In this document: piece after piece, positions 24,984-64,000 of the stretch
Position numbering within the stretch: the stretch's first letter is position 1
How the letters are laid out: every line of letters begins with the position of its first letter
Source: an uncultured Clostridia bacterium
GTDB taxonomy: Bacteria; Bacillota; Clostridia; Christensenellales; CAG-917
Length of the DNA: 64,000 nt
Reading direction: 5' to 3'
Assembly (NCBI GenBank): GCA_934233745.1
Contig: CAKQGN010000001.1
Span: forward strand, 322,621 to 386,620
Made by a program: the position numbers and the translations under genes
Notes under the pieces: model-generated
Databases searched by the model: none
What the model saw: only the letters and a program-made list of their open reading frames with translations
What the model was told of the DNA's origin: nothing

Positions 24984-25830
24984 CACAGGTGAATCGGCGT
25001 TGTACACAGACTCCATCCGGACACTTTTGGATATGAGTAGGACAGTTTCAAGACTCAGCCGTACTTTGCCAAGATTAACCCGTACTCTATCAAGACTCAG
25101 TTGTACTCGCTACACCTTTACATGTTGTGAACAATACACATCGTAAACATAGACGAATGAACAAATAAGAACATCGTTGTGCGCAATTTGGACAAGTTTG
25201 AAATCGTGACCGAACACCGTTCGAGCCCTGTTGTGATATGAACTACCGACAGCGTATCATTGCCGACGTATTTTGCACAAATGGGTGCAAGTTTAGTTTC
25301 AATGGTTTTCGTTCGGTTTTGCGGGACAACTCTCGGGAGCGAGAATGGCTACGCAATGGCTTTTGTGTGTTATGAACAGTTTTTAAGTTAGCACAGAATC
25401 GTTTTTGAGCGTGAGTACATAAAATCCAACTTTAGGGGAAATTTTTGTGAAAAAGCGAATGTTGAGTGGGAATTTGAATGGGAAAACGCATATTAAGGTA
25501 AACTCGAGCGGGAATCCCGATGCCGAAAAGATAAAAGCAGAATTCGCCGGTTGATATAAAAAAAAGAAAAAATCCGCCTATGAAAAAGAGGACAAAAAAT
25601 CACATTGCCGATGTGCGAGAAAAACGGGCCCGATTCGCCAAGCGGTTTAGCGCGAACGGCCCGTTCCGCACGGCTGCGATTTTGCCTTTTTAGGCGGTTT
25701 GTTTTTATACAAGGCGTATGCTTGTCTCGGCGAGGCGCATCGGGGTTCCCCGCAAAACGGAGCGCAGCGACGTTTTGTGGGGTGAAAGGCTCGCCGACTT
25801 GTTCAAAGACAAGTATACGCCTAAGTGCCA
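24984..25830 (-). repeat. Diverged inverted copy of the R scaffold module (element terminus)
   Basis: The reverse complement of 24984-25215 aligns with 49560-49786, including the GTAC-N6-AGTCTTG iterons and the terminal TGTACAACGCC(A/G)ATTCA block. 25640-25710 aligns in reverse complement with 49315-49385 (ATAAAAACAAACC ... CGCGCTAA(A/C)CCGCTTGGCGAA). The middle section is only weakly similar. Confidence 0.55.
25712..25822. repeat. Long imperfect nested hairpin at the cargo-proximal side of inverted R copy
   Basis: Outer arms AGGCGTATGCTTGTCT (25712-25727) and AGACAAGTATACGCCT (25807-25822). Nested arms TCGGCGAGGC / GGCTCGCCGA and CCCCGCAAAACG (25748-25759) / CGTTTTGTGGGG (25771-25782). Confidence 0.6.
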
Positions 25831-25940
25831 AAAAGAATTTTTGCGCAACACACGAGAGGTAAAATATTAAAACTTTGACAATGTCCCGCAGATGGTACGT
25901 TCGATTGGATAAGATAAAAAAAATTATACAGGAGATTGTC

Positions 25941-26774
25941 ATGGGGTTTGAAACGATTATTGATTTGGAACGAATTGCAAGAAATAATGTCAAAAAAATG
26001 TTGCCTTGCGATACAAGATGGGACGGTATGATTGAGAAAGAGATCATACGGATAACAGAACTTGATATGGCAAAATATTTTTGCATTGTAAGAAGGATAA
26101 GAGAGTTTTTGAAAGAGAAGGATAAAAGCACTCGGTTTTTCGGGAACGGGGGTTGCAGTTTAGTTGCGTATCTGCTTGGGATAACCGATATAAACCCGTA
26201 TGAACATGGTTTGATATTTGAAAGATATTTTAATGAAAAGTACAATATGCAATGTTTATTTGGTTTTTACATGGACGAGGATACGCTTGACGAGTTGGCG
26301 GAATATCTCAAAAAAGACTTTGAGTTTGTGGAAATCGAGATTGGGGAAAGAGAAAACATTTTGCATATCGACAAAGTTGAGATACCGATAATAACGTCTG
26401 CCGTAACGATGAAAGAAGTTGAAGGTTGGATGTTTGATAGATTTCGCTATTTGGGAACTACGCCGTATACCGAAGATTATATGCATTTCATTCATTATAT
26501 TGCGGGGTATAGTTATGACGAAGTCGAAAAAATACGGCGTACTATATGTAGCTTCAAAAAGAATGAAATAGACGCACTAGAAGCACAGTTCATCATGCGT
26601 TGTCCTCAATGGATTGCTTGTGCCGAAAGGTTTGCGCTTTTTTACAAAATTGCGCGAAGAATGCGCATGTCGATAAGTAAGGCGTATTGCGTGTCGGCGT
26701 TAAAAGTGCTTGGATGCAAAGAAATCGATTGCGATGAGATGCCGTTTGGCGGTGAGTACGATGACGAAAAGTAA
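25941..26774 (+). CDS. Small DnaE (Pol III alpha)-like fragment protein lacking recognisable catalytic palm residues
   Basis: FGNGGCSLVAYLLGITDINPYEHGLIFERYFN resembles DnaE GRGSAAGSLVAYxLGITDxDPxxYxLLFERFLN. The following PDFDIDF catalytic block is replaced by LFGFYMDED. A later segment, GYSYDEVEKIRRTICSFKKNE, resembles DnaE ...ADxLRRAMGKKK. I prefer ATG 25941 with RBS AGGAG over the TTG at 25875. Confidence 0.5.
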   Translation: MGFETIIDLERIARNNVKKMLPCDTRWDGMIEKEIIRITELDMAKYFCIVRRIREFLKEKDKSTRFFGNGGCSLVAYLLGITDINPYEHGLIFERYFNEKYNMQCLFGFYMDEDTLDELAEYLKKDFEFVEIEIGERENILHIDKVEIPIITSAVTMKEVEGWMFDRFRYLGTTPYTEDYMHFIHYIAGYSYDEVEKIRRTICSFKKNEIDALEAQFIMRCPQWIACAERFALFYKIARRMRMSISKAYCVSALKVLGCKEIDCDEMPFGGEYDDEK

Positions 26775-26864
26775 TATGCGAAGAATTGTTTGCACTGTAT
26801 ACGGTACATTGTGTATTTACATTTCGATAAATCGGGGGTATGATATATGAAAGGAGATTTGCTT

Positions 26865-36841: not shown

Positions 36842-37040
36842 AAATGGGCAATGCTTGTTGAAAGTCGCAAGCAAAGCGGCTTTCGACAAAAAAAGGGAAA
36901 CCGACACACTAAAAATAATGTCATATTGTCGTATGGGACGATAGGTTTTTTTCGAAAGTGGCGGCGAGTCGCCGTCTTGCCACTCAATTTCTCTCACTCC
37001 CTGCGCTTGTATGTCATTATAGGGAGAATAGGAGAAACAC

Positions 37041-37232
37041 ATGGAACTTATCAGCCCAGATGCAAAAAATATGCTCGTCAAACACCAGGAAGAAATCAAA
37101 AGAAGCGTGCTTTTGCCATTGTTTATCGATGCTCTCCTTACAGGCGGCATAACGCTGTTCGATGAGGTGCGCTCGCTGCTTGAAAATTCAGGAATTTGTT
37201 TGGATGACTTTGATTTTTCCAAATTGAAGTAA
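37041..37232 (+). CDS. Small hypothetical protein (63 aa)
   Basis: RBS AGGAGA 6 nt upstream of the ATG. Acidic, helical-looking sequence. Last ORF before the L scaffold module. Confidence 0.35.
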   Translation: MELISPDAKNMLVKHQEEIKRSVLLPLFIDALLTGGITLFDEVRSLLENSGICLDDFDFSKLK

Positions 37233-37441
37233 AACGGCTGTGTTTTTATGAAAAAAGTTAATGATATGGGTGTAGCATTGTGAGAATTATTGCCTAATTG
37301 CTCCGAGTTTTTGTTACCTTTCGGCGTGGCGGTTTAGCACAGAGAAAAGACTATATCAACGGCATAAAAATCTTGTAATATTGCTTCAAAAATTATCTCA
37401 AATCTAATGCGCATTTTATATGCTTTTTAGTCGTTTGCCTG

Positions 37442-37514
37442 TTAGACGAGCCGTAGTCTTGATACAAGTGTGACGATTAGACGTGCCGTAGTCTTTGATA
37501 CAAGTGCGCACGCG
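37442..37514 (+). repeat. Two tandem direct-repeat units TTAGACG(A/T)GCCGTAGTCTT(T)GATACAAGTG
   Basis: Unit a is 37442-37470 and unit b is 37477-37514. Unit b is identical over ~38 nt to the cores at 50647-50684 and 63610-63647, and has 1 mismatch to 49247-49284. Confidence 0.85.
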
Positions 37515-37672
37515 CGTGCGCGAGGGATTGTTTTGATGCACTTTTTACACAACATTTTTATGCGATTCGTTGACATAGGCATCTTGCAATTTGAAATGAT
37601 ATGTTTTTGAGTTTTCTCGGTGCTGCGCCGTCTTGTTGCCGAAAGACAAATAAACTCGGAGCGTATACAAAA

Positions 37673-49726: not shown

Positions 49727-49786
49727 GGGCGGCATTGTTTAGGAAGATGACCGGTTTAGTCAGTGTACAACGCCAATTCAACCGTG

Positions 49787-50468: not shown

Positions 50469-51573
50469 GCTCCGAGTTTTTGTTACCTTTCGGCGTGGCG
50501 GTTTAGCACAGAGAAAAGCCTATATCAACGACATAAAAATCTTGTTATATTGCTATCAAAAATTGTTTCAAATTTAATGCGTATTTTAACCGATTTTTTA
50601 AGCGTTGGCGATTAGACGTGCCGTAGTCTTGATACAAGTGTGACGATTAGACGTGCCGTAGTCTTTGATACAAGTGCGCACGCGCGTGCGCGAGAGATTA
50701 ATTATGCGCACTGATATGTGTTTTATACAAAATTCAAGTAAAGGCTCTTACACAACATTTTTATGCTGGTCGTTGACATAGGCATCTTGCGATTTGAACC
50801 AATACGTTTTTGAGTTTTCTCGGTGCTGCGCCGTCTTGTTGCCGAAAGGCAAATAAAACTCGGAGCATATCAATATGAAATCGCAAATCAATCTTCAAAA
50901 TCAAAATGCAATTAGTATTTATGATAGCAATCAAGCACAAATCAAAATCGTTGCGAAAAGACAATACATATTGGGCGATGACGTTGTTATTACCGTCGAC
51001 AATATCAAGAAAATCGGCGAATTGATAGCGTTGCTTACTATAAGAACCGTTATGTGTCGTTCGGGCAAGGACTTATATCGTCTTTATGACGGGCTTATCC
51101 AGGATTGCAACAAATCGAATGATTCTCTTGACGAATACTCGGATGGATATGACATAGCTCAAACCGCAATGTTGTTCCTTTGTGAACACATTGGCAAAAG
51201 ACTTGGCGACAATTATACGACCGCACATGGAAACATTATCTCGATCAAGCAAGCGTGCTTTCGTTTTACGGATAGATATTTGGACAAACAGTTCACACGC
51301 CATTTGGCGCACACAACCGCCATAAGCGACAGCGTTGCATCATCGCACATAACTTTTATCGACGATGAATCCGACAACGATTATACCACCATTGACGCGC
51401 TCATAGAAAGAATGAATTTAACGCAAGGCGAGTATGACGTTCTCTGCGCCTATATGTCGGGATTGACCTATCTCGAAGTAACACAACTTTTGAAAGTCAA
51501 CCGCACAACCATATGGCGCAGAAAGATGAATTTGCAAAAAAAATATTTACTATCAACAAATGTCTATAAATAA
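50469..51573 (+). repeat. L scaffold module, intact copy (leader + sigma-r4-type HTH gene)
   Basis: Homologous to 37290-37900 (see that entry). Carries the tandem DR units at 50612-50640 and 50647-50684. Confidence 0.8.
50875..51573 (+). CDS. Sigma-70 region-4-type HTH protein (ICE regulatory, Tn916 Orf7-like class)
   Basis: The C-terminus LTQGEYDVLCAYMSGLTYLEVTQLLKVNRTTIWRRKMNLQKKY is a sigma-r4/LuxR-type HTH. The gene sits behind a conserved leader. Confidence 0.55.
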   Translation: MKSQINLQNQNAISIYDSNQAQIKIVAKRQYILGDDVVITVDNIKKIGELIALLTIRTVMCRSGKDLYRLYDGLIQDCNKSNDSLDEYSDGYDIAQTAMLFLCEHIGKRLGDNYTTAHGNIISIKQACFRFTDRYLDKQFTRHLAHTTAISDSVASSHITFIDDESDNDYTTIDALIERMNLTQGEYDVLCAYMSGLTYLEVTQLLKVNRTTIWRRKMNLQKKYLLSTNVYK

Positions 51574-51696
51574 ATGCATTGAAAAAAACAATTGCAATTA
51601 TGACATCTTCATATTGATTTGATATTATGCTGTGTTATAATTTATCAGTAGCTTCGAAATAGGCAATTTTATTGAGCGATGTAGATGGAGGAAAGT

Positions 51697-52587
51697 ATGA
51701 TATTTTCAAAACGATATAAAGACCTGTTAGTTAATGGCGATGACGTCCCCAATACTTTAAATTTTATTGGAGATATTGACTATTTCGCAAGGAAAGGGAT
51801 TGTTAGTGTTTTGAAGTCTTTTAATGAACCCAAAAAAGTAAAGATAAGCAGATATAGTAACGAAACCAGCGATAATGATGCATTTACATTAGCCTTAATG
51901 AAATTAAATCAAGAACTAGGCTATGATTTGTTCAACTTTAATGCGTTGTCATGTAATTACGGGACATCAATGGTTGATGAACAGTTGATGGGCGGAAACC
52001 TAAACTATCTTTTTGACGTGATTGAATTACAACATGACTTTTTATCCTCCAAGGAAAAATGTGAATTTACAAAGAATATCAATTCAGTTTTAAACGAATG
52101 CGAAATTCCATGGATGTTGGTTGATGGCAAAATGACAAAAGTAGATGCCAAACAGTTTGAATGTGATATAAAAAGAAAAACACTTGAAAAAATGAAAGAA
52201 TTATCAGATTGTGATTCAAAGTTTAAGCCCGCTTTTGAAGAGCTGCAAAAAGCTATAGAATTTTACAACAAAGAAGATTATTCGGAATCGATAACGAATG
52301 CGAACAAATGTTATGAAAGTGTGATGAAAGTCATTATGGGCACAAATGACGGAAATGCAGGTGAATTAACAAACAATATCAAGAACAAATTAGAATTGCC
52401 ATCAGCTATTAACAAAAATGGCTTTAAAGATCGCATACTTATGAGTTTGCCGTATCTACGCAACGAATTATCTTCACACGGTGCAGGAAGTGAAAAAAAC
52501 ACAATATCAAAGTCTTTGGCAAATCTTGCACTTAATTTAGCTGCATCGCTTTGCACATTTGTAATTGAAGATTTGCAACATAAGTAA
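51697..52587 (+). CDS. AbiJ-like / HEPN-motif protein
   Basis: ATG 51697 follows RBS GGAGGA. The C-terminal helical domain has LPYLRNELSSHGAGS, an Rx5H HEPN-type motif with Asn after the Arg. Confidence 0.45.
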   Translation: MIFSKRYKDLLVNGDDVPNTLNFIGDIDYFARKGIVSVLKSFNEPKKVKISRYSNETSDNDAFTLALMKLNQELGYDLFNFNALSCNYGTSMVDEQLMGGNLNYLFDVIELQHDFLSSKEKCEFTKNINSVLNECEIPWMLVDGKMTKVDAKQFECDIKRKTLEKMKELSDCDSKFKPAFEELQKAIEFYNKEDYSESITNANKCYESVMKVIMGTNDGNAGELTNNIKNKLELPSAINKNGFKDRILMSLPYLRNELSSHGAGSEKNTISKSLANLALNLAASLCTFVIEDLQHK

Positions 52588-52844
52588 TTTCTGTTTGTAC
52601 AAAACGAATTCACATGGCTTTAACTAAAACAACCCGACGTTATGTAGGGCTGTTCTTATATTATTTTAGCACTAAAAACTGATATGAATGCATCGGGGAT
52701 TATAAATTGTTTTTCTCCGATAGCATATTTGACGCGAATATGTATTTTGACGTTATCCATCCAAATTATAGTGCCATCGCCAAATTTTTATGTGTTACGA
52801 CGGTTCCGATGTTTCTAAGCGAGAACGCAATGGGTAGGAGTTAA

Positions 52845-52872
52845 GTTGACAATATTGGTCAAAATGTTATAT
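52845..52872 (+). promoter_or_regulatory. Candidate promoter (TTGACA-16 nt-TATATT) for the helicase gene
   Basis: TTGACA at 52845-52850 and TATATT at 52867-52872, about 70 nt upstream of ATG 52945. Confidence 0.4.
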
Positions 52873-52944
52873 TATTAAAAAAATCAGATTTATTACAACG
52901 AGGCGGATATAAGTACTTCTTTGTTGATTTAATAAGGAGTGAAA

Positions 52945-55900
52945 ATGGGGTTCATTTCCAGTCTTTTGGGAAAATTGCGAAAAGACAAAACAAATAATCT
53001 CCCGGTAGAATATAAATTAGTCCTTGATTTCAATAAGGATTTTTCTGACTTGTTAAAAAAAGACAAATTTTTAGCAAGAAGCGATTATAAACATTTAATT
53101 GAACAGTATAAAGATATTTATGTGTTTTTTAACAGTTGTCAAAACGCAAAAACATTGCAGTACTATTGTAAACAAAACAAAGTAGACGAGAAGACAATTG
53201 ATTATTTTTTGCATTCATATAAAGATATCGAGAACTTGCAAATAGGTTCAACAATAATTAATGAACACAATGAAAACTACATTGCTTTACATTTAAAAAC
53301 AGAAAAACCGTATCTTGACTCTATATTGCAAGAAATTGACCCAAAAATAATTCTTGACGAAGAGCAACGCAGAGTTATTCTTTCAGATGAGGATTATTCT
53401 TTAGTAATTGCGGGGGCTGGAGCGGGTAAAACGACAACCGTTGCGGCAAAAGTTCGCTATCTTGTAGAGAAGAAACACATCGATCCTAAACAAATACTTG
53501 TTATTTCTTTTACAAACAAAGCCGTTGGGGAGTTAAAAGAACGGATAAATGAAGGGCTAAAAATTCAGTGCCCCATAACAACTTTCCATAGCGCAGGTTA
53601 TGCTATATTACGAAAACAAGATGTCGAAAAGAGAAACATCGTCAGTGATGGGTTCCTTTTTAAGACCGTTAGCGATTACCTAGTAGGGAACATTTTAGAA
53701 CAACCGGAATTGGTCGATAAGCTGATAATGTTTTTCGGCTCATATTTTGATGCTCCGTATGAAGGTAACGATTTGAATTTGTTCTTTAATTATGTCTCGA
53801 AAGCCGACTTTTCTACATTGAAGAGTAATGTTAATGAGTATAACGAACAGATAATAGATAGAAGAACCAATAAAGCAATAACTATAACTAATGAATCGTT
53901 AAGATCGATTCAAGAAGTTCGCATAGCAAATTTTCTGTATCTTAACAATATTGATTATGTTTATGAAGAACCATATCAGTATCACATATTAAAAGCAAAG
54001 AAGCCTTATACGCCTGATTTCTGTATTAGACAAGGCGACAAAATCGCATATATCGAACATTTTGGAATAACAGAGGATGGACATCATAGTTTCTATTCTT
54101 CGGATGAATTGTTAAAGTATAAGAAAGAGATTAATGACAAAATCGCACTGCATAGAAAGCATGGTACAACGCTTATTTATACTTTTTCGAAGTATAATGA
54201 TGGTAGAGATTTGCTTGAGCACTTAAAAGAACAACTTGAAACAAATGGCTTTAAATTGCAACCGCGTTCATCTCAAGAAGTATTTGAAAAACTCGTTAAT
54301 ACCGAAGAAAACAAGTATATTTTGAAACTTGTCAAGTTGATATGCGTTTTTATAAATAACTTCAAGACTAACGGTTATGTTTTGGAGGATTTTTCTCGCT
54401 TTGAGAGAATGACCTCAAATGTTAGAACAAAACTGTTTTTAGATGTGTGCCAAGCATGTTATCATGAGTATCAAAAAAAATTGAGAGAGATCAATGCGAT
54501 TGATTTCCAAGATATGATAAACGATTCCGCTCGTATTTTGAGAGAAAAAGCCGTAGCAAAAGAGGCATTGGATTTCAAATATATTATAGTCGACGAGTAT
54601 CAAGATATATCGAGACAAAGATTTGATTTGACGAAAGAATTGTCAAATCTTTGTTCTGCAAAAATTATTGCCGTGGGTGATGATTGGCAATCTATTTATG
54701 CGTTTAGCGGATCTGACATAACACTGTTTACGCATTTTTGCTCAATAATGGGATATGGCCAAGAACTGAAAATAACTAAAACTTATAGGAATGCGCAAGA
54801 AGTTATAGATATAGCCGGTAATTTTATTCAAAAAAATGATAGCCAGATAAAAAAGTCATTGATTTCGCCCAAACATATTCAGAAGCCAGTTATCATTGAA
54901 ACGTATAGCGAGGATTTTGATAGAAAACAATTCCAAGGAAAGGGTGGAAAATACTATCAATTAGGCAAACAGCTTGAAACGGTTATCGGTCAAATATTAA
55001 AGAAAAATCAAGAAGAAGGCAAGGGCGCAAATTCTCCGATTTTGCTAATAGGTAGATATGGCTTTGATGCAAACAATCTCTGCTTTTCAAACGATTTTGT
55101 ATACGATGAGCAGAATAACAAAATATTCAGTAAAAAATACCGCAATGCAAAACTCGAATTTCTAACTGCACATAGTTCTAAAGGATTGGGTTATGACAAT
55201 GTCGTTATAGTCAATGCAAGGAACGAAATGTATGGATTTCCATCGAAAGTCGATAACGATCCCGTGATGCAGTACGTAGTTAAAGACGATAAAACGATTG
55301 ATTATGCAGAGGAACGGCGTTTGTTCTATGTCGCAATGACAAGAACAAAAAATCGGGTATACATAATTACCCCGCAACAACATCCTTCCGAGTTTATCTT
55401 GGAGTTAATTAAAGACTACCCAAACACCTTGGTTATCGGACAAATCGAGAAAGATAACCCAACGAATGTAGGGACTATAAAGAAATGCCCGATTTGCGGA
55501 TATCCTCTCCAATTGAAATGGAAAAAGAACTACGGCCTAAAGCTATGGATTTGCACGAACGAGCCAGAGGTTTGTGGCTTTATGACTAACGACTTAAAAG
55601 GCGGAGATATGTCGATACAAAAATGTCCCAAATGTAGAGACGGGTATTTGATTGTAAAGCCCGGTACAACTGAGCCTATTCTAGGATGCACCAACTATAA
55701 GCACGATAAAACGGGTTGTGATTGTCTAATGTCAAGAGAATATTACAAAAGGTGGCTTACGAATGGCTATGAAGATGATTTGTCTGTAGATAAACCTTCA
55801 TATTCTCAAAGTGAAATAAAGGAAATGCCTAAACTTGTTCCTCAAAAGTCAAAACCGATAATCGAAAGAAAGCCAATTCGAGTTCATACTACATCAGTAG

Positions 55901-56202
55901 AAGAAAAGTATATTGAAAAAGACGGTTTTGCTGTGATTGTAGATGATGATGGTGAACTGATAACGGATATGAAGTTGTTAAGACAATTAAGGGGGCTTAG
56001 GATTAAACTGATGAAGGAGAATAATTGTCAGGCTTATAATATCATTGGCAACAAAGGGTTAGTATCGTTGGCAACCTATAAACCCGAAACTAAAGAAGAG
56101 TTTATTGGCCTAAAAGGATTAGGTGAATCTACATACAGTTCATTCGGTAAGGCTTTTATTGATGAAATAAGGGAATATAATCGATTTGGCCACAGTGAAT
56201 GA
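52945..56202 (+). CDS. UvrD/Rep-family SF1 helicase of the helicase IV (HelD)-like type with C-terminal Topo-type C4 Zn-ribbons and an HRDC domain
   Basis: Walker A: LVIAGAGAGKTTTVAAK. Motif II: YIIVDEYQDIS. Helicase-IV-like insert: IANFLYLNNIDYVYEEPY...YTPDFCIRQGDKIAYIEHFG. Zn-ribbons: KKCPICGYPL...WICTN..VCGF and QKCPKCRDGYL...LGCTNY. HRDC-like segment: LLRQLRGLRIKLMKENNCQAYNIIGNKGLVSLATYKPETKEEFIGLKGLG. Confidence 0.85.
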   Translation: MGFISSLLGKLRKDKTNNLPVEYKLVLDFNKDFSDLLKKDKFLARSDYKHLIEQYKDIYVFFNSCQNAKTLQYYCKQNKVDEKTIDYFLHSYKDIENLQIGSTIINEHNENYIALHLKTEKPYLDSILQEIDPKIILDEEQRRVILSDEDYSLVIAGAGAGKTTTVAAKVRYLVEKKHIDPKQILVISFTNKAVGELKERINEGLKIQCPITTFHSAGYAILRKQDVEKRNIVSDGFLFKTVSDYLVGNILEQPELVDKLIMFFGSYFDAPYEGNDLNLFFNYVSKADFSTLKSNVNEYNEQIIDRRTNKAITITNESLRSIQEVRIANFLYLNNIDYVYEEPYQYHILKAKKPYTPDFCIRQGDKIAYIEHFGITEDGHHSFYSSDELLKYKKEINDKIALHRKHGTTLIYTFSKYNDGRDLLEHLKEQLETNGFKLQPRSSQEVFEKLVNTEENKYILKLVKLICVFINNFKTNGYVLEDFSRFERMTSNVRTKLFLDVCQACYHEYQKKLREINAIDFQDMINDSARILREKAVAKEALDFKYIIVDEYQDISRQRFDLTKELSNLCSAKIIAVGDDWQSIYAFSGSDITLFTHFCSIMGYGQELKITKTYRNAQEVIDIAGNFIQKNDSQIKKSLISPKHIQKPVIIETYSEDFDRKQFQGKGGKYYQLGKQLETVIGQILKKNQEEGKGANSPILLIGRYGFDANNLCFSNDFVYDEQNNKIFSKKYRNAKLEFLTAHSSKGLGYDNVVIVNARNEMYGFPSKVDNDPVMQYVVKDDKTIDYAEERRLFYVAMTRTKNRVYIITPQQHPSEFILELIKDYPNTLVIGQIEKDNPTNVGTIKKCPICGYPLQLKWKKNYGLKLWICTNEPEVCGFMTNDLKGGDMSIQKCPKCRDGYLIVKPGTTEPILGCTNYKHDKTGCDCLMSREYYKRWLTNGYEDDLSVDKPSYSQSEIKEMPKLVPQKSKPIIERKPIRVHTTSVEEKYIEKDGFAVIVDDDGELITDMKLLRQLRGLRIKLMKENNCQAYNIIGNKGLVSLATYKPETKEEFIGLKGLGESTYSSFGKAFIDEIREYNRFGHSE

Positions 56203-56411
56203 GTGCTTTTGCCACACGAAAAACAAGGATCGAAGTGTGTTGGTGTTTATCAATCTAATAAGAATAGACAGCTATCTGTATTTATAGAGTTCGTTGTCTT
56301 TGTTTTTCCCATATGCCTGAATGGCTTAAAAGCAATAGACGGCACGACCTATAAAACCGTAAAAGTCGGAGAAAAATCCATATTCCTAACAACTAAAAAT
56401 TCCCTCAAAGC

Positions 56412-56450
56412 AAACGAAAAGCCGGGAGCAAAACCTCTCGGCTTTCGTTT
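56412..56450. terminator. Bidirectional terminator between convergent genes
   Basis: AAACGAAAAGCCGGGAG - loop - CTCTCGGCTTTCGTTT, an imperfect ~16-bp stem flanked by A/T runs. It overlaps the stop codon of the minus-strand rSAM-like gene. Confidence 0.6.
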
Positions 56451-57210
56451 AATCTGATATGGTTCCTTCTTTGATATGATAAGCAATGTCGTGTTCATTG
56501 CAAAACTCGATAGTTTGCTGTGCCAACATGTTAAAAAATTCCTTATGATTTTTATACGCTGAGACCAGTTTATTGTAGTTTAATCTTCCAAAGATTATTT
56601 TATCTACGAATTTTATTGTCTCTAATATGTCGCGAAAATCCTGTTCGATTATATTAGGCGTCGGATAGGGTTCTATGCTCACCCAAGTCTTATAACCAGA
56701 GTCGTGCAAGTATTTTAATGCTTCTATTCTATCAACATATGAAGCTGAAAAGGGTTCCATTTCTTTCCTAAAATCTTCATTTAAAGAAATCAATGATATT
56801 CCATATTCATTTTCTTTTGATAAATTTGCTAGTTCATGAGGCAATATACCTTTGGTTAACACGGTACATTTTATTCCAGCGGAATTCAGTTTTTCAATAC
56901 AATTTAGACTCATCTTTTGAATTTCTTCATAACCATACATAAACGGATCTGTTGTAAAACACAGCTGAACAGATTTGATTTTATCTTTTAATTTAGGGAT
57001 CTCATTATCCAATAGCTCAAGAGCATTGATTACCAATTTAGGCTCACACCATTCTTCATATGACTTAATTTTGCCAAAACGCTTTGCTAAAAGCATAGCA
57101 TAACAGGGATACTTGCAACCATGTGCACATCCTTCAGCAATGTTGATTGTATAGTCGCCATATTCAACGCCTGTTTTATAAAGCAGACTTTTTCTTTCAA
57201 TGTAGTTCAT
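56449..57210 (-). CDS. Radical-SAM-like protein (SplB/COG1533-like) with CX3CX3C cluster spacing
   Basis: YTINIAEGCAHGCKYPCYAM resembles the GCxHxCxYCYA block of SplB-like radical SAM enzymes, but with one extra residue before the third Cys. Confidence 0.7.
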   Translation of the reverse strand: MNYIERKSLLYKTGVEYGDYTINIAEGCAHGCKYPCYAMLLAKRFGKIKSYEEWCEPKLVINALELLDNEIPKLKDKIKSVQLCFTTDPFMYGYEEIQKMSLNCIEKLNSAGIKCTVLTKGILPHELANLSKENEYGISLISLNEDFRKEMEPFSASYVDRIEALKYLHDSGYKTWVSIEPYPTPNIIEQDFRDILETIKFVDKIIFGRLNYNKLVSAYKNHKEFFNMLAQQTIEFCNEHDIAYHIKEGTISD

Positions 57211-58379
57211 AACAACTCCACAAATATATCATTTTTTAAAAAATCCAAAGACTTGGATGGCTTTCCAGCCGGCGTCAAAGGATTTTTACGGTGAATACGA
57301 ATTTTGCCAGCTATTTCTAGTTTTTGAAGTGCTTCTCTTATGTCCTTATGCAAATACTTTGGACCGTTTAAAGTGTTCGCTTTTAGACACAACTCCTTGC
57401 AATCAATTGGTTTATTAGTTCCATATTGTTGGAGTAACAAAATAATATCATCCTCACAAGAAACGCGAGAATAATCATAATCAAATATGGACTCTTGTTG
57501 CCCTCTATTATCCAAACTCATTTGATAACTACATTTTATCATGTTTTCGCACATAAATAAAGCCCCGTGAATATGTCGAGTGGCAAAAATCATTCTATAT
57601 TTTGGAATCTTGCAATCGCCGGTCTTGACTGCAAATTCAAATACATATTCAAAATCTTTACTTAGCACATTCATATATTGCTGGACAAACAATTCTTCCG
57701 CTTTGCGACCTGAAATGACGCCTTCTTTTTTTTGGTTGATAATATCCTGCCAATATGTACCATTTGCAATGGCATTCATATTTTCAACGCTATTTGCAAA
57801 AGTATCGTCGTCACTTTCTTCGAATGAACCTAAATCTTCATCAACTTCCGCGCCGAGAAGACGACAGCCTTCTCGAATAAATCCAAATGAATTTAGATTC
57901 AGCAACAACTCAACGCTATTCGGGTTTGACGCCAATTCAGAGAAAACATTGTACCGTAAATGCTTTATTCCAAACGGATCAACGCACATGAATATATTCT
58001 TGCCCTTATTCTTATCGCGAGACAAAATCGATAATGCTTCCTCTTTATAATCTTTATTAAGGACATAGCACCAATCGCGATCTAAAGCTTGCTTTAGACA
58101 ACTAGCATATTTCCTATTATATTCAATAAAAATTGGTATTACTTTGTTAGGATAACGGGTGGATTCGTGTGCTTGTTCGATTTTATCTCGTATTATTATT
58201 GGAGAACCATCCGTACCATCATCAAATTTTCCTTTTCCTGCAAAACCGTCAATGAATAACGTGTCTCGTCCTGTTGAGAGAATCTTTGAAAGATATAATT
58301 GCAAATAGTTTTCCAATAATTTATCTTTATAGATTGACCATCCTTTTTTCGTTTTAAAAAAACTTGAAGTGTTGCTCAT
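57207..58379 (-). CDS. TcmP-like (three-Cys-motif partner protein-like) protein with MTase-like DGFAGKG motif
   Basis: WSIYKDKLLENYLQLYLSKIL...TLFIDGFAGKGKFDDGTDGSPIII resembles my recollection of the TIGRFAM three-Cys-motif partner family. Its stop overlaps the start of the rSAM-like gene (ATGA-type 4-nt overlap). Confidence 0.5.
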   Translation of the reverse strand: MSNTSSFFKTKKGWSIYKDKLLENYLQLYLSKILSTGRDTLFIDGFAGKGKFDDGTDGSPIIIRDKIEQAHESTRYPNKVIPIFIEYNRKYASCLKQALDRDWCYVLNKDYKEEALSILSRDKNKGKNIFMCVDPFGIKHLRYNVFSELASNPNSVELLLNLNSFGFIREGCRLLGAEVDEDLGSFEESDDDTFANSVENMNAIANGTYWQDIINQKKEGVISGRKAEELFVQQYMNVLSKDFEYVFEFAVKTGDCKIPKYRMIFATRHIHGALFMCENMIKCSYQMSLDNRGQQESIFDYDYSRVSCEDDIILLLQQYGTNKPIDCKELCLKANTLNGPKYLHKDIREALQKLEIAGKIRIHRKNPLTPAGKPSKSLDFLKNDIFVELL

Positions 58380-58382
58380 CGT

Positions 58383-61300
58383 TTACTCCATGGGTTTTAT
58401 CATTGTATTGATGAAAGAGATTTCTTCCAATGTCAACTTGCATTTATCGCAGATTTGCTGATTTATTTCGTTTATGGTTTTTGAAAAATCAATAAGACTA
58501 CTCGTGTCTGTATAATCCAAAATATCAGGCACAAATTTTGCGAGAGCGGATAAGGATTCATCAGACAACAAGAAGGCATATTTAATAATTGGACAATTAG
58601 CATATTTGAAAAAGTTTTTGGCCTCTTGTTCTGTTTTAAAAGATTTTAATGCAACTCTTGCGCGTCCAAAAACACTGTGATTATCAATTATCGCCATTTG
58701 ATTATCCCTGCCTTCTTGACCGCCTGGATGAGCACTTGAAACTACAACTTGCCATTCATTTATATACCCAAGATTATTAGTGATCAAGCTTTTATTTATG
58801 ACAAACCAACCGCTTCTTCCTGCAGGTCCTGCTTTATCATTTGTTAATACTTTTATATCATTGGGGCCTAAAGACTCTCCCTCAATATATTTTCTTGTTG
58901 CAACAAGATTTTTTTCGATAAAATCACTTTCAATTCCGAACAGAGATCTTGACAAAATACTTTTATGCAAATATTCTAAATTATTAGATTCCACAAATTG
59001 TTTTATTTTGTTTGCAATGCTTATGTCTTGAGGGTTGATAAGCAGCAAATCGTCTCCTGGATTGGTTTGAATCACGGAAAGCTTGCTTCGGTCCGTGATA
59101 TACTCATATTTAAATTCCTCCGAATCCTTATCTTTGTCCATTACGACAATAGAAATACCGTCAGAAATGTCAGTACATTCAAATACATCTTTTGACTTTG
59201 GATAAAAGATAACCTTGCTGAGATTTCTTGAATTTATCAACTGTTTACCAAATTCTTTTAATCCTTTTCCCGATTGATGAATCCAACGGATGCCAGGGAA
59301 AATCAAAACTGAATATTTATTCGCTATTTGTTCAGATAGAATTTGAAAGTATTGAAAAATATTTGTCCGCGGGTTTTGTCCATTTGTATTGCTGTTATTT
59401 TTTGCTTCAGATTGATACGGAGGATTACCTACAACTGCTTCAAATTTTATCATATCGTTTTCTCCTTCGGTGAGGGTATCTGTCAATTTTATTGTATCGA
59501 ACGGCTTGTTCTGCGTCAGCAACGCCTTGATCTTATCGTAATCGACGTTGTTATCCTTTTTGACTTCAAGTAAGTCGGTTGCTACAAATTCTTTTGCTAT
59601 GTTTGCCACGTTTAACCCCAGCATTTCGTAAAGCTTTCGCGTGAGTTCATAACATACGGACGATTTTGGAATGATGTATATGCTGTTTTTGACAATCTCT
59701 TCCGATACACCCAAAGCGCACATTTTTTTATAGAGCGCAACGGCATATTCGCCGGCAGTCCCTGCAATATCCAAAACTTTTCCGTTTGTTTGAGAGAGTG
59801 CTGTGTAGGTTTCATCGGGGATGAGGCTTACCATATCATCACAAATATTCGACGGCGTAACGACAATCGCATCGCCTAATTTCCCGAATTTGTTTATTGC
59901 AACGGACGCTTTTTCTGCAGGGCTCAAAGTGTCGTCATTTGACAATTTGTTCAAATTTTGGATTTTATAATCCAAATCGCTTAGTACAAACTTGTTTGTT
60001 TGTTGATTCAGCAAAGAAAGAACTTCGACGTTTAAGCCCAGATTTTTGATTATTCTTGCATTATCTTCGGTGGTGCTTTTTACAATAATATCGGCAAGAG
60101 AAATCACCGTATCTTTTGTGATAAATGCAAATAGCAAAATCCTTGCGTAATAACTCTGAATCTTTTTCGACAAGCTTTGTTCTTTATTTTTTTGCTCGTC
60201 AATAGAAATAGGCTCGGCTTTAGTAGGATTGTCAGGATTATCTTTGTTGTTGGACGAATCTGGGATATTCATATCTTCGACTTCTTCTTCGCCGTCTTCT
60301 TGTTCATGTGCGACAGTGGAAAGACCCGACTTTGAGCCGATTTCGTTCTCTTTTTCTATTGCGGAACGAATTGTGTCGTCGTTAAGAACGCTTAAATCGA
60401 CGGGGACTTCCAATGCCTCGTCTTTTATACCTTTGTTCTTTTGATAATTGCTGACCGCTTCAAGAATGTCGCTTGCGACAACTTTGACGATTTTATCTTT
60501 ATTCAGCGTAATTATAGGAGAAATTTCCAACTCTTGTCGTATGCGTTTTTCGAGTTCGGTATTTCCGCCTGTTTCAACGTTTACATTATAGATTTTGGAT
60601 TTTCTTTCTTGCATAGCGAACATTCTGTTCGGATCGAAATCGACGAGCAGAGTCTGCGGCTTCTTATTGAATTTTATCGTATGTCCGTTGCTATCTGTAT
60701 AAGTCGTAACATACTGATTTTGCAGGCGAAAAACTGCCTGATCATATTCTTGCGGTGATGCTGTATCTTTGAAAAACAGCATCGTATCCCATTCGCGCAC
60801 GGTGCTGCCTGTAAGCATACGATTGACCGTGAGCGTTATAGTCTTTTTGCCTTCAGATTCAAATTTTGCAATTGCTCGCTTTACATCTTCGGCTGTTTTA
60901 TACTTATTGGGATTATCTACGCCGGATATGTTTACGATTTCATATTCGCCGAGATTTTTGAAATGTTTTTCGTTATTTTTAATTAACGCTTCTAATGCGT
61001 CACAAGATGCGCAATACGGCAAAACAATAACCATATGCCTGCACATTTTGCCTTCTTTGATTTTATCGTAATCAAGAAAACCTAAAAGACAATCGTCCTC
61101 TTTACTTCCGTCAATAACCGAGAACAAATCCAATAGTTCTTCTTCATTTTCGAATAGTTTATGTGAGCCGTCATCTGCCTTTTTGATTGATTTGGGTTTG
61201 AAAAGAGCAGAAAAAGCATACGTTGTTCCGCTTGTTCTAAGACTTTCGAGTTTTTTGCGCGACGATTCGTTAGGTACAAATGCAAAACGAACCATCTGCG

Positions 61301-62483
61301 GGAAACCATAATAAGGGTTCTCCCAATCTTCTTTCTTTTCTTCTTCGGGTAAAGCGAAATTTTCTTCGTCCCATTTCTTTTGGTCGTTTACTATATCCGT
61401 AAATTGGTAAAAAGCGATAATATCTTCTTTCGAAAATTCGCTTCCCATCAAAATGCGATACGGCGTTCCCGACAAATGAATTGTATTTTTTGCTTTTAAT
61501 ACTTTGATTGCGGCATCCGCTTCGCTTGCTTCTACAAAATCGTCGGCATCCTTTTTATTCTTTGCGTCGGCAACGTAATTCGTCGCTCCTTTAAGAACTT
61601 CTCCGTATTTTTCTGCGCGTGCTCCGAAATGTGTTTCATCTACGAGCAATAAATCGATATCTTGTCCAAAGACTTCTTGATGCTTGTTTTTTATGGCTTT
61701 GCCTTGCAAGTCTTGTAAGGTCAAAAAGACGACAACCTTTTTGCCCGACGATAATTTTTCGGTAATCAAATGATTGTTTCGCAATAAATTTTTCGCCGAA
61801 ATAAAATCATAATCTGCAAAAAGAACGTGACTTTCGACCGTCTTTTTCCATTCGGACAAAACGTCGGCTTTTGCCGATACGACAACCACCAAACTATCAT
61901 TATTCGCAACGGCGCAGCACATAGAAGTGAACGACTTGCCGAAACGCATTACGGCATACATCAATAAATTGTGGCGGTCGTCTGCAACTGCCTTTTTGAA
62001 TGCCTTAACCGTATCTTCCTGATTCGGACGCAATGGATAAGTTTCCGTGCGCTGAAAAGCCATATCTTCCGGTTTAAGCGTTTCCGCATTATAAAAAGAG
62101 TATTTTTGTGTTTTTGCCGAAAAATCTCTTTTTATATCTTCAATAGCTTCTTCCAAATCTTCGACGGAAGCATCCTTGAAAAACTCTTTCGAATAATATA
62201 CATCGGCAGGAATATCTGAAAGAAGAAGCCTTATTCTGCTTTTTTCGGTTTCTAAGAATTTATGTACTGCAAAATCGCGAAAATAAACATCATCGATTTT
62301 CGCAATAGAATCAAACTCCTTTTTTAATGTGGGGAAATACGCTTCCCATTCTTTTAATCTGACGGACACAGGACGATACGTATCGCCGACCTTCAGATAA
62401 TTAGGAATTGTATTCGTCGAAAACGCATAGATATGAGGCTCTACGCGCCCAATGATTATTTCGTCCAAAAGCGAGTAATCCAT
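58383..62483 (-). CDS. Giant fusion: T5orf172/GIY-YIG-like N-domain + SF2 (DExH) helicase + gamma-class N6-adenine DNA methyltransferase + C-terminal recognition-like region (Type ISP-like architecture)
   Basis: N-terminus: GRVEPHIYAFSTNTIPNYLKVGDTYRPVSVRLKEW (T5orf172-like). Helicase motifs: MYAVMRFGKSFT (motif I), LLLVDETHFGA (motif II), VNRMLTGSTVREWDTMLFF...QAVFRLQN (motifs V/VI). MTase motifs: VLDIAGTAGEYA (motif I), FEAVVGNPPYQ (motif IV). Confidence 0.85.
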   Translation of the reverse strand: MDYSLLDEIIIGRVEPHIYAFSTNTIPNYLKVGDTYRPVSVRLKEWEAYFPTLKKEFDSIAKIDDVYFRDFAVHKFLETEKSRIRLLLSDIPADVYYSKEFFKDASVEDLEEAIEDIKRDFSAKTQKYSFYNAETLKPEDMAFQRTETYPLRPNQEDTVKAFKKAVADDRHNLLMYAVMRFGKSFTSMCCAVANNDSLVVVVSAKADVLSEWKKTVESHVLFADYDFISAKNLLRNNHLITEKLSSGKKVVVFLTLQDLQGKAIKNKHQEVFGQDIDLLLVDETHFGARAEKYGEVLKGATNYVADAKNKKDADDFVEASEADAAIKVLKAKNTIHLSGTPYRILMGSEFSKEDIIAFYQFTDIVNDQKKWDEENFALPEEEKKEDWENPYYGFPQMVRFAFVPNESSRKKLESLRTSGTTYAFSALFKPKSIKKADDGSHKLFENEEELLDLFSVIDGSKEDDCLLGFLDYDKIKEGKMCRHMVIVLPYCASCDALEALIKNNEKHFKNLGEYEIVNISGVDNPNKYKTAEDVKRAIAKFESEGKKTITLTVNRMLTGSTVREWDTMLFFKDTASPQEYDQAVFRLQNQYVTTYTDSNGHTIKFNKKPQTLLVDFDPNRMFAMQERKSKIYNVNVETGGNTELEKRIRQELEISPIITLNKDKIVKVVASDILEAVSNYQKNKGIKDEALEVPVDLSVLNDDTIRSAIEKENEIGSKSGLSTVAHEQEDGEEEVEDMNIPDSSNNKDNPDNPTKAEPISIDEQKNKEQSLSKKIQSYYARILLFAFITKDTVISLADIIVKSTTEDNARIIKNLGLNVEVLSLLNQQTNKFVLSDLDYKIQNLNKLSNDDTLSPAEKASVAINKFGKLGDAIVVTPSNICDDMVSLIPDETYTALSQTNGKVLDIAGTAGEYAVALYKKMCALGVSEEIVKNSIYIIPKSSVCYELTRKLYEMLGLNVANIAKEFVATDLLEVKKDNNVDYDKIKALLTQNKPFDTIKLTDTLTEGENDMIKFEAVVGNPPYQSEAKNNSNTNGQNPRTNIFQYFQILSEQIANKYSVLIFPGIRWIHQSGKGLKEFGKQLINSRNLSKVIFYPKSKDVFECTDISDGISIVVMDKDKDSEEFKYEYITDRSKLSVIQTNPGDDLLLINPQDISIANKIKQFVESNNLEYLHKSILSRSLFGIESDFIEKNLVATRKYIEGESLGPNDIKVLTNDKAGPAGRSGWFVINKSLITNNLGYINEWQVVVSSAHPGGQEGRDNQMAIIDNHSVFGRARVALKSFKTEQEAKNFFKYANCPIIKYAFLLSDESLSALAKFVPDILDYTDTSSLIDFSKTINEINQQICDKCKLTLEEISFINTMIKPME

Positions 62484-62497
62484 GTCGTTTCCTGTCC

Positions 62498-63463
62498 TTA
62501 CCTTTTGATTAGACTGACAAATTTAACTCTTTTATTTGTCGACCAGTCCATGATATAGCAATAGATACCGTTATGTTTATTGGGGGTGTTTGTTTTACAA
62601 CCTTCACATTCCATTTTGTGATGCTCCTCGCCGAACAGCGTATATACTGTTTCGTCAACGGATTTGCAACTGTTTGGAATTACATATTTCAAACCGTCCA
62701 TTTGCCAAATGTTCCAAGAAATTATCTCTGCGAAGTCAATGAGGTATTCGGTGATGGGAGAAAGCCCGAATTTATCTGTGTAGTAGTCGATAAAAGTGCG
62801 TAAAAGATTTTCACGAGCAAGCAGAACATTGTCGCCTTGCCAATCGAATCCATAGACACTTTTGAACGCAATTTTTGCCCATTCAACCCATTCTTGCTCG
62901 CCATCGACGTTTTCAGAAATGACGCGAAGTTTTCTGTCAAGTAACCCGATTCTTTCTTTTATAGCAATTATATTGCCGGTTACAGTATCATAACGACTGA
63001 CAAGATAAGGAGCTTCTCCACAAGTTATCTCAAGGCGATTTTCTTTAACGTAGTCTTGCCATGATTTTCCTTCGGGGAAAGTTATTCTCTCAAGATTAAC
63101 AATCCACCCTTTATCTGTTTCGGTGTTGAATACATTTCCTTTTCCAAACCAAGCATCATCAATAAGGTTATTTTGCGCATTACAAATCCATGATGGGGTA
63201 AAAACCTCGGCTTTGTCTTTAACACGTGATGCTTGTTCTTTTTTTGATTTTTCAACACGCGGCTTTATAACGCTGCCATTGCGTTTTATGATTGCATTGC
63301 TTGTTATATGATCGTATGATTGGTATCCAACTCCTCTTGACGCGTAATTATCTGTCGCCCAAATCAAGTTCTTTTTGGACGAGTGGTCTATAAGCAGTGC
63401 TTCGAGCAACTTGCTGTCAAGTTTAAAAATATTCGTTTCCTTGATGTCAATATTATAGTTCAT
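62498..63463 (-). CDS. MTase-fold-like protein with degenerate motifs, function unknown (first gene of the minus-strand operon)
   Basis: KAEVFTPSWICNAQNN resembles the xVxTP block of gamma-class MTases. LEITCGEAPYL resembles a degenerate motif I, and VYGFDWQGDNVLLARENL resembles motif II/III. No NPPY was found. The next gene starts 14 nt downstream. Confidence 0.4.
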   Translation of the reverse strand: MNYNIDIKETNIFKLDSKLLEALLIDHSSKKNLIWATDNYASRGVGYQSYDHITSNAIIKRNGSVIKPRVEKSKKEQASRVKDKAEVFTPSWICNAQNNLIDDAWFGKGNVFNTETDKGWIVNLERITFPEGKSWQDYVKENRLEITCGEAPYLVSRYDTVTGNIIAIKERIGLLDRKLRVISENVDGEQEWVEWAKIAFKSVYGFDWQGDNVLLARENLLRTFIDYYTDKFGLSPITEYLIDFAEIISWNIWQMDGLKYVIPNSCKSVDETVYTLFGEEHHKMECEGCKTNTPNKHNGIYCYIMDWSTNKRVKFVSLIKR

Positions 63464-63600
63464 TATTTATCCTCAATGCTAATCGGTAGGGAAGCGCAAT
63501 AGAAATGCACTGACTAACTATTAAAATGTATAATAACATAATAGACGCCAAAAATCAAGATGGTTAGCAGTTGCGTTTAATAAAAGATAAGGCTTTTTAG

Positions 63601-64000
63601 ATTTGCCTGTTAGACGTGCCGTAGTCTTTGATACAAGTGCGCACGCGTACGCGCGCGCAAGACTACGGCACGTCTTTGCATAAAAACAAACCCAAATCCG
63701 CAAAAGGCGGCACGGAGCGGAGCGAGGTTTCGCGCTAACCCGCTTGGCGAAATCCTCGCTTATCCGCCATGCCGTTGCCGTCGCTTTTTCTTGCGGTTTT
63801 CTTGGGTATTTTGTATATTGCAAAATCTCGTTTGCCGTTTCGTTCTTTTGTGTTGCGTAGGCGTTGCACTATTGTTCCGCAATCATATTTTCATTATCAA
63901 ATTTGTGTTCAAATCACGTTCCGTTATTGTTTCAAATTTGTCCAAATCACGCACAACAGTGTTCTTGTTTGTTCATTCGTCTATGTTTACGATGTGTATT
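63601..64000 (+). repeat. R scaffold module, copy B (runs off window)
   Basis: Near-identical to 49238-49637. Includes the perfect 17-bp inverted repeat at 63612-63628 / 63659-63675 and the 38-bp core at 63610-63647. Confidence 0.85.

Follow-up and report, generated by a model that had tools for sequence, protein, structure and literature searches.

A tRNA-proximal defence island in an uncultured Clostridia bacterium, probably built by tandem accretion of small integrative elements with a large serine recombinase

The tandem accretion of integrative elements and the carriage of defence genes by such elements are established principles. In the classic accretion around ICESt1 and ICESt3, two streptococcal integrative and conjugative elements (ICEs), the elements have tyrosine integrases together with relaxase and conjugation modules, and the staphylococcal cassette chromosome (SCC) has rlmH as its target. 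Here we analysed a 64,000-nt stretch of DNA (the window) from an uncultured Clostridia bacterium (contig CAKQGN010000001.1 of assembly GCA_934233745.1, positions 322,621 to 386,620), the whole of which is a defence island and in which two repeated modules, L and R, frame unrelated defence genes (the cargo). L and R were found to be the two ends of an integrative element of 8.5-16 kb, which carries a large serine recombinase (LSR). It is likely that the region from 24858 to the end of the window is the tRNA-proximal part of a defence island built by tandem accretion of this one family of small elements. Searches of the literature found no description of the L/R element family; the principle is known, but the family appears to be undescribed, as do its backbone of two genes and its structured leaders.

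ICESt1/ICESt3 with their cis-mobilisable elements (CIMEs) and the tandems of streptococcal integrative and mobilisable elements (IMEs) likewise form a tandem array with a decayed copy distal to the target gene, and one described example of tandem accretion also lies at a tRNA-Lys 3' end (PMC5704250). In contrast to streptococcal accretion, the L/R elements use an LSR and have no transfer gene, and the decayed copy in the window is a relic and not a CIME. SCC, SCCmec and the SCC-like defence cassettes of staphylococci are likewise LSR cassettes stacked at one site; many reportedly carry anti-phage systems, and SCC-like cassettes without a recombinase reportedly sit beside one that has it (PMC11470126). 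The Enterococcus cassette chromosome can be grouped with this SCC-type comparison (PMC6222049). Unlike SCC, the L/R elements target a tRNA 3' end, use a single recombinase instead of CcrAB or CcrC, possess a sigma-like gene and long structured leaders, and occur in uncultured gut Clostridia. iOriTs are reported as genomic islands of six nosocomial species with an integrase and an origin of transfer (oriT) but without relaxase or mating-pair formation (MPF) genes; they are likewise minimal, lack transfer genes, form large cross-species families and have defence genes near a putative cis site (10.64898/2026.01.13.699239). Compared with iOriTs as described there, the L/R elements have only a putative oriT, and their hosts are gut Clostridia. 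Pipolins (PMC11551731) and tycheposons (10.1101/2020.12.28.424599) are looser analogues, with a conserved mobile backbone, an exchangeable cargo slot and tRNA integration, whereas the L/R elements have no PolB, tyrosine integrase, primase or phage structural genes.

Self-BLASTN of the window recovered all the L and R repeats listed in an earlier note, which had been made from the letters of the window. The direct copies of R (R1, 49238-49637, and R2, 63601-64000) were 95.0% identical over 402 bp (E 3e-178). The two copies of L (L1, 37290-37702, and L2, 50459-50904) were 82.4% identical over 449 bp (E 9e-128), with a second segment (37796-37874 against 51469-51547) at 83.5%. An inverted R (R3) at 24984-25202 matched 49786-49568 of R1 at 78.7% (E 4e-43). 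L and R also have a direct repeat of ~50 bp in common (50647-50700 against 63610-63665 and 49247-49302). It holds a 17-nt motif, AGACGTGCCGTAGTCTT, of which each L has two copies in direct orientation and each R an inverted pair; the motif is nearly invariant across the family, being exact in most copies and carrying one substitution in some. The repeats were thus real but their limits were revised, to 49226-49773 for R1, leftwards to 24858 for R3 and to a start at 50288 for L2. Similarly, the two L-cargo-R units of the note were retained with other sizes: unit 1 is 13.0 kb (37296-50287) and unit 2 ~16.0 kb (50288 to ~66324, beyond the window). Searches with Pfam and PADLOC confirmed that the cargos of these units and of a third block to their left are unrelated and consist of defence genes. 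The parts of the two units are as follows, where ORF232 is an open reading frame (ORF) of 232 codons, R-M stands for restriction-modification, att for attachment site and HTH for helix-turn-helix.

37296-37891, plus strand: L1, degraded L module, 91% identical to the L of locus L002 from the equivalent of L002 position 9625
37296-37702, plus strand: core of L1, with copies of the 17-nt motif at 37444 and 37479
~37673 and 37802-37891, plus strand: remnants of the sigma-like gene in L1, namely its first codons and its last 30 codons
38041-49050, plus strand: cargo 1, with hsdM, hsdS and hsdR, an embedded AbiJ_NTD4 gene and an embedded 232-aa gene, two unknown genes and Fic
49226-49773, plus strand: R1 hairpin block and part of the downstream leader, with the inverted pair of the 17-nt motif at 49249 and 49296
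49774-50215, plus strand: C-terminal relic of the unit 1 LSR, residues 355-500 (tblastn with the 500-aa recombinase rec500, 90% over 146 aa)
50246-50287, plus strand: right end of unit 1, with a terminator-like hairpin (50246-50279) and the att core TCGTGGTGA (50279-50287)
50288-50464, plus strand: left arm of unit 2 (178 bp), an attP-derived P' arm specific to the rec500 type
50465-50874, plus strand: core of L2, a long imperfect inverted repeat with arms at ~50468-50541 and 50766-50863
50875-51573, plus strand: ORF232, a sigma-factor-like backbone gene with a sigma2-like N-terminal domain and a region-4/LuxR-type HTH
51600-51641, plus strand: two overlapping sigma-70-like promoters at the outer edge of L2 (10/12 matches, TG-extended), facing the cargo
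51685-63463, both strands: cargo 2, as assigned by Pfam and PADLOC
Cargo 2, plus strand: AbiJ-like gene (PDC-S32), GajB-like UvrD/HRDC helicase (GajB E 8e-48) and an 84-aa ORF
Cargo 2, minus strand, starting at R2: type II methyltransferase (MTase_II E 2e-130) and a type IIG restriction endonuclease-methyltransferase of 1366 aa (REase_MTase_IIG, 1257 bits)
Cargo 2, minus strand, further on: a PDC-M30A-like 390-aa protein and a radical SAM protein
63592-64000, plus strand: R2, cut by the end of the window, with the inverted pair of the 17-nt motif at 63612 and 63659

Unit 2 is intact. Contigs 100% identical to the window were present in ERZ28614678 and ERZ27286971, and two loci, L011 and L012, were 100% identical to it over 52498-64000 and continued past its end to an intact recombinase and tRNA-Lys. 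The serine recombinase that the earlier note had expected beyond 64000 was therefore found there, and the statement that neither unit encodes an intact one holds inside the window only, since that of unit 2 lies just past its end. In the 100% identical contigs, R2 is followed by small ORFs, an intact 500-aa serine recombinase (rec500), a terminator hairpin, TCGTGGTGA and tRNA-Lys, the 3' end of which comes immediately after TCGTGGTGA on the opposite strand (L011). A tRNA scan detected no tRNA inside the window, the target tRNA being just past 64000. The left end of unit 2 at 50288 reads GCAAAATAATGC.. and its right end at ~66324 reads ..TTATTCGTGGTGA. In another genome, unit 2 was found as a solo element at tRNA-Glu (L059 and L013, which are one contig) with 1 mismatch in 11,296 bp. 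L059 is identical to the window from 50278 onward, and unrelated chromosomal genes lie to the left of the solo copy. The presence of a solo copy with a single mismatch at another tRNA indicates that unit 2 moved recently and is an element in its own right.

Unit 1 is a decayed relative of unit 2. Its hsdM and hsdR were 95.7% and 97.6% identical to those of an intact solo type I R-M element (L043) with the order L, hsdM, KAP NTPase, hsdS, a 310-aa gene, hsdR and R, and the end of L1 matched the L end of this element. The embedded genes differ between the two, L043 having a KAP NTPase where unit 1 has the AbiJ-like gene, and unit 1 contains an extra 3-kb block ending in Fic, which is missing from L043. 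In L1, the recombinase-specific left arm and attL are missing, and the upstream sequence (36842-37295) showed no match in the L/R family and no left core. ORF232 has undergone an internal deletion, which left its ends only. At the other end of unit 1, the DNA of the recombinase relic matches L011 7652-7139, and a 1.72-kb deletion (L011 9373 to 7652) has taken away the small ORFs together with the catalytic part, two-thirds of the recombinase gene, so that R1 joins the relic directly.

Since L2 begins with the 178-bp recombinase-specific arm at 50288, the boundary of the units lies at 50287/50288. The junction (50279-50293) reads ..GGTTATTCGTGGTGA directly followed by GCAAAATAATGC.., that is, recombinase-side arm, core and L-side arm, and is thus attP-like, which would be expected if one element had inserted at the att of another. 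An independent assembly from another sample (L060) was 100% identical over 41175-61573, a range that covers R1, the relic, the junction and L2, which indicates that the junction is not an assembly artefact. An attP-like junction with a recombinase relic of only 197 bp, followed by an intact L, was also observed in L053 (95-3052) and L051. The family thus contains further tandem arrays in which the upstream copy has decayed.

Two recombinases, rec500 and a 535-aa protein (rec535), were found with L and R. Both match PF00239, PF07508 and PF13408 (Resolvase, Recombinase and Zn_ribbon_recom), and the N-terminal domain of rec500 matches the TP901-1 integrase (E 7e-15). They are 43% identical to each other, and the relic in the window is 33% identical to the 535-aa protein. 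The rec500 and rec535 types have the L core, ORF232 and the R core in common but differ in the att-proximal arms and are placed in opposite ways relative to the tRNA; the element backbone is modular. The rec500 core TCGTGGTGA, which is the reverse complement of the tRNA 3' end (..TCACCA), was present at both ends of the solo unit 2, at the tandem junction and at attL of L020, with the 3' end of tRNA-Lys (L011) or tRNA-Glu (L013, L026) at attR. The rec535 core TCCACCA lies at tRNA-Val(CAC) or tRNA-Ala(CGC). The L/R elements thus show features of LSR integrative elements: the LSR domain set, short identical cores at attL and attR, and a specific target.

The R core consists of two long hairpins; in R1, the inverted pair of the 17-nt motif is followed by a ~110-nt imperfect hairpin. 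The fold z-scores of the R hairpin were -6.3 on the plus strand and -6.5 on the minus strand, and the mean pairwise identity of the hairpin block was 94%, against 83-90% for the ORF232 DNA of the same elements. Small basic ORFs of 82, 61 and 55 aa were observed between the R hairpin and the recombinase (L011 8831-9311, minus strand), and the N-terminus of such an ORF, MNK.AR.RKRGKA.VATKSVK, is kept in the inverted relic (window ~24858-24990, minus strand). They may encode a recombination directionality factor or a regulator. The R hairpin was also compared with an integron attC site, and this assignment was rejected: GTTAGAC is present on one arm only, in the wrong position and orientation, and there is no IntI. 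Nor do the units form an integron cassette array, as no tyrosine recombinase was found in the window and the units are multi-gene blocks of 13-16 kb.

The L leader is also highly structured, with a DNA-fold z-score of -6.8. In L2, the arms of the inverted repeat are ~75 nt long and the variable centre contains two direct copies of a 30-35-nt unit, with the 17-nt motif at 50614 and 50649; the 3' arm holds the ribosome-binding site of ORF232. Homologues of the left arm of unit 2 were found in L020, L043, L049 and L052, whereas rec535-type elements have a different sequence of ~170 bp in its place and the window L copies lack the first 170-240 bp of the rec535-type reference L. An Rfam scan of the whole window at the gathering threshold gave no match, and an E-value scan of 49150-50950 gave only a sub-threshold match of rli38, on the terminator hairpin. 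The L inverted repeat was considered as an inverton and rejected, because its centre has the same orientation in every aligned copy; L024 is rearranged, not flipped.

ORF232 is the sole intact gene in L. Searching with it returned 580 clusters and 389 representatives, both at E<=1e-3, and the 120 matches listed were 87-93% identical, none of them named. ORF232 itself has no Pfam match, but Sigma70_r4_2 was matched by 14/50 of its relatives (best E 1e-5) and GerE by 12/50. A profile of the family matched sigma-H (3mzy, E 9e-5) and RhlR/LuxR-type HTH proteins in the PDB. These sequence matches support a region-4 HTH. The top Foldseek matches of an AlphaFold2 (AF2) model (pLDDT 87) were all sigma factors, although weak ones (E 0.014-0.1, TM ~0.2-0.3). 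From these matches, ORF232 is presumably a sigma or transcription factor acting on a conserved 30-nt unit, TTAGACGTGCCGTAGTCTTTGATACAAGTG, two copies of which precede ORF232 and one the recombinase operon; this shared unit may be the target of ORF232, an operator or a promoter. The promoter pair at 51600-51641 is conserved in L002, L003 and L053. Remote relatives of ORF232 (39-46% identity) were found directly after a tyrosine integrase (L054 1588-3610 and L055) and beside a cluster of type I R-M and KAP NTPase genes (L056 1-10621). These neighbourhoods suggest that ORF232 serves as a backbone gene in integrative elements beyond the L/R family.

The evidence throughout is comparative. About 60 loci were inspected, from hundreds in the L/R element family, and the relatives are mostly metagenome contigs. 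Many gut metagenomes contain the elements, as do metagenome-assembled genomes (MAGs) of Christensenella-like bacteria and other Clostridia, and a scan of species-representative genomes revealed several copies per genome in uncultured Clostridia and "Christensenella sp." MAGs. In two ORF232 contexts the layout was a tRNA gene, ~550 bp of noncoding DNA, ORF232, variable cargo, ~700 bp of noncoding DNA, the 535-aa LSR and a short repeat of the tRNA 3' end. Pairwise comparison set the limits at ~9457-20372 in L002 (~10.9 kb) and ~9464-17978 in L007 (~8.5 kb). These two elements have only the L module (~1.3 kb) and the R-plus-recombinase module (~2.3 kb) in common, and their cargos are wholly different: an AbiJ gene, a T5orf172-helicase and Eco57I-type methyltransferases in one and a Vsr/Dcm R-M system in the other. 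L, R and a Resolvase/Recombinase/Zn_ribbon_recom gene were found together, at different sites and tRNAs and with different cargo, in L001-L010, L011-L013, L043-L048, L020 and L022. The cargo consists mostly of R-M, Abi or helicase defence systems. Its boundary on the R side is sharp, within ~20 bp of the hairpin, and mosaicism at the level of single genes is evident inside the type I R-M cargo (unit 1 against L043). From comparison of sequences we consider as shown the anatomy of the element, its att cores and tRNA targets, the independent mobility of unit 2, the decay of unit 1 and the diversity of the cargo. One apparent cargo was rejected, a pst-pho operon in L024 (10001-19750, Christensenella sp. 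UBA767), because the same operon is the chromosomal flank of L020 (1005-8000); relics can therefore trap chromosomal genes and mimic cargo.

We propose the following course for the growth of the island. The circular form of the element would contain the R leader, small ORFs, LSR, attP, L leader and ORF232, with a backbone of ~3.1 kb with rec535 or ~4.2 kb with rec500 and a single cargo slot between ORF232 and the R leader. The recombinase would join attP to a tRNA 3' end, using in the case of rec500 the core TCGTGGTGA and the targets tRNA-Lys and tRNA-Glu that were seen. A later copy would integrate at the tRNA-side att of the resident, so that the oldest copy would come to lie farthest from the tRNA and decay. 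The intact copy in the window array indeed adjoins the tRNA, and decay is greater with distance from it. Unit 2 would be the recent copy and unit 1, without attL, ORF232 and most of the recombinase, an older one, while further to the left only an inverted R relic and a cargo block would be left. Recombination in the conserved L and R backbones would replace one cargo by another, and individual genes would also be swapped within a cargo. The tandem accretion of site-specific elements at one attachment site, as suggested in the earlier note, is thus supported and fits the three-step model (PMC5704250). The leftmost remains are listed below.

24858-25830, minus strand: inverted and truncated R relic (unit 0), with the part between hairpin block and recombinase, the start of a small basic ORF and a variant R segment
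25875-37165, plus strand: cargo block 0, as assigned by Pfam and PADLOC
Genes of block 0: DNA_pol3_alpha fragment, WYL/WCX regulator, DUF2779/Cas4-like nuclease, AAA ATPase (IetA-like), metallophosphoesterase, cREC_REC and unknowns

The relic was 88.8% identical over 24858-25203 to L011 9188-9534, the continuation of R2, and 25204-25830 matched the variant R in L024 and L052. No recombinase and no L belong to it. Block 0 had been described as a third cargo block bordered by an inverted R; the inverted R is present on one side, but the block is not an L-cargo-R unit, as its other side abuts L1. Its transcription leads away from the inverted R, which is also the direction in the intact units, where the R-adjacent operon runs towards L (L002, L007, L020, L022, L025 and unit 2). 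We read the relic and block 0 as the remains of an older unit that was inverted.

Several observations weigh against the proposed course. Large serine integrases normally recombine attP only with attB, and integration into a resident attR or attL would be non-canonical. The route to the tandem is accordingly uncertain: an identical junction could result if a dimer formed beforehand had integrated, or if copies had undergone homologous recombination with each other. An inverted relic cannot come from insertion at the same tRNA with unchanged orientation, so that an inversion or some other rearrangement has to be supposed. L1 is cut off exactly where the L core starts, for which accretion gives no reason, and the L-side boundary of the cargo is ragged, with no sign of precise cassette insertion. 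That the recombinase is currently active is suggested by its intact reading frame and by one near-identical copy elsewhere. The sigma assignment of ORF232 rests on weak fold matches and on sequence matches at the level of the HTH. In the L leader, 66 consensus pairs included 0 compensatory changes; since the arms are nearly invariant and there are no compensatory pairs, a role as RNA is neither supported nor excluded. Finally, no relaxase, type IV secretion system (T4SS), capsid or packaging gene was linked to the family, and no helper element was identified.

Other explanations of the locus were weighed against accretion. If L and R were the conserved flanks of a chromosomal hotspot, in which the cargo is swapped by homologous recombination and the units are immobile, the same L and R would frame unrelated cargo, as was found when related genomes were checked. 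The sharp boundary on the R side, the ragged one on the L side, which is expected of homologous or illegitimate exchange, and the gene swaps in the type I R-M cargo agree with it as well. However, L and R occur with a serine recombinase beside at least 4 different tRNAs, in differing neighbourhoods and with short core repeats, and the solo unit 2 differs by one mismatch in 11.3 kb, which makes immobile units improbable. The swapping of cargo between conserved flanks, an alternative in the earlier note, is true family-wide, but it takes place inside a mobile backbone and not at a fixed chromosomal hotspot; it complements accretion and does not replace it. An assembly artefact, by collapse of repeats or joining of strains, has next to no probability. 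The repeats are 400-1100 bp long, and the contigs of three assemblies break in hsdS (41105-42400) at ~41175-41200, where L060, for one, starts (41175), but the identity of L060 extends from there across the junction, the type I R-M operon shows no disruption at the break and is collinear with L043, and R1 and R2 are distinct copies, as they differ by 5% and by the 1.72-kb deletion. In ERZ28614678, scaffold_43 ends and scaffold_116 starts within the hsdS of unit 1. The break point in hsdS suggests strain heterogeneity or shuffling of specificity domains.

The units have also been viewed as CIMEs beside an ICE, moved by its integrase and conjugation machinery, with the following gene for a type IV coupling protein (T4CP) at the left edge of the window as a part of that ICE.

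1-1798, minus strand: T4CP (VirD4/TraG-like) gene, its last few codons cut by the edge of the window

The T4CP gene is present, unit 1 has no functional recombinase, and a tandem fits the literature on CIMEs. Window 1-4000 was 98.7% identical to L031 6226-10224, in which the product has 607 aa with the domains T4SS-DNA_transf, TrwB_AAD_bind and TraG-D_C. However, the gene is an orphan that lies ~35 kb from the array with unrelated defence genes in between, and it does not belong to the L/R elements. It adjoins a Sel1-like gene and a dlt-like operon, which marks the border of the island on the left. A neighbouring 305-aa ORF, considered as a relaxase, gave only weak Sel1-repeat matches and was rejected. 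Exact-protein look-ups of 1810-2727 and of the Fic ORF gave no match, probably because the start codons differ. No relaxase, T4SS or ICE integrase was found in the 64-kb window, and the ORFs of 24092-63823 and the related elements had no relaxase or T4SS domains, so that they do not qualify as an ICE or IME. Unit 2 is a complete element with its own intact recombinase and hence not a CIME. Unit 1 has lost its recombination genes, as a CIME does, but a CIME retains both attL and attR, and its attL is lost. A neighbouring integrase of the same type is at hand in unit 2, given the 90% identity of the unit 1 relic to its recombinase, but unit 2 is not an ICE. Taken together, it is quite unlikely that the units are CIMEs moved by an ICE. 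Very unlikely, too, are phage satellites of the PICI type (phage-inducible chromosomal island) or PICMI type (phage-inducible chromosomal minimalist island), which would be packaged by a helper and in which the leaders would be pac/cos and regulatory sites. The minimal content of an integrase and one regulator, the tRNA integration, the defence cargo and the conserved noncoding blocks would suit a satellite, whereas genes for a primase or replicase, a terminase small subunit, capsid remodelling or Alp-type functions were not found. ORF232 had no relative among 50,697 phage records or among plasmid records, and the 17-nt motif gave one unrelated coding match only in IMG/VR. The L and R DNA likewise had no match in plasmids.

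In the accretion model, the folded L and R leaders are most likely cis-acting sites (oriT, single-strand origin or promoter) for hitching on a conjugative helper, because the family lacks a relaxase, a T4SS, a packaging gene and phage or plasmid relatives. As a wider and rather doubtful proposal, the elements could represent an undescribed two-gene class of "defence cartridges" in gut Clostridia. In such a cartridge, the leaders would be signals in single-stranded DNA (an oriT, a single-strand origin or an Frpo-like promoter that switches on ORF232 on entry into the recipient), and ORF232 would drive the recombinase operon and the cargo from the 30-nt unit. The cartridges would spread by exploiting an unrelated conjugative helper, and islands would arise by accretion at tRNA genes. 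The locus makes the growth of an island concrete, as self-integrating cartridges would accumulate side by side at a tRNA gene and, on decaying, become fixed defence genes of the chromosome. An abundant family with two recognisable modules and one cargo slot could guide the discovery of new defence systems in Christensenella-like bacteria and other Clostridia, and the two tRNA-targeting serine recombinases could be useful in these organisms, which are hard to manipulate genetically.

The left part of the island contains genes for vWA, PP2C-like, kinase, TerD, TIR-TPR, ClpP-paralogous, TIR-STAND and metallo-beta-lactamase-fold (MBL) proteins. A PHP-domain ORF (20254-21306) and the DNA_pol3_alpha ORF at the start of block 0 (25875-26774) look like the halves of one DnaE-like gene. 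They are 4.5 kb apart, with the TIR-STAND gene, the MBL/Apyc1-like gene and the inverted R relic between them, and the same arrangement was observed in L036-L039. Within this interval, a TIR-NACHT/STAND protein gene (926 aa) overlaps by 4 bp the gene for the MBL protein, which has an Anti-Pycsar Apyc1 match (PF23023); the pair (21315-24847) may constitute a defence sensor with a putative cyclic-nucleotide phosphodiesterase. A cluster of vWA, PP2C-like, Ser/Thr kinase and TerD genes at 4322-9377, and a pair of ClpP paralogues followed by unknown proteins of 874 and 361 aa at 15262-20154, probably represent additional conflict systems that have nothing to do with the L/R elements. Inside the TIR-TPR gene (11548-15186), repeats are spaced at multiples of 126 bp (13020-15098), and the length of its product varies among contigs, being 1212, 961, 757 or 754 aa, or split into 270 + 487 aa.

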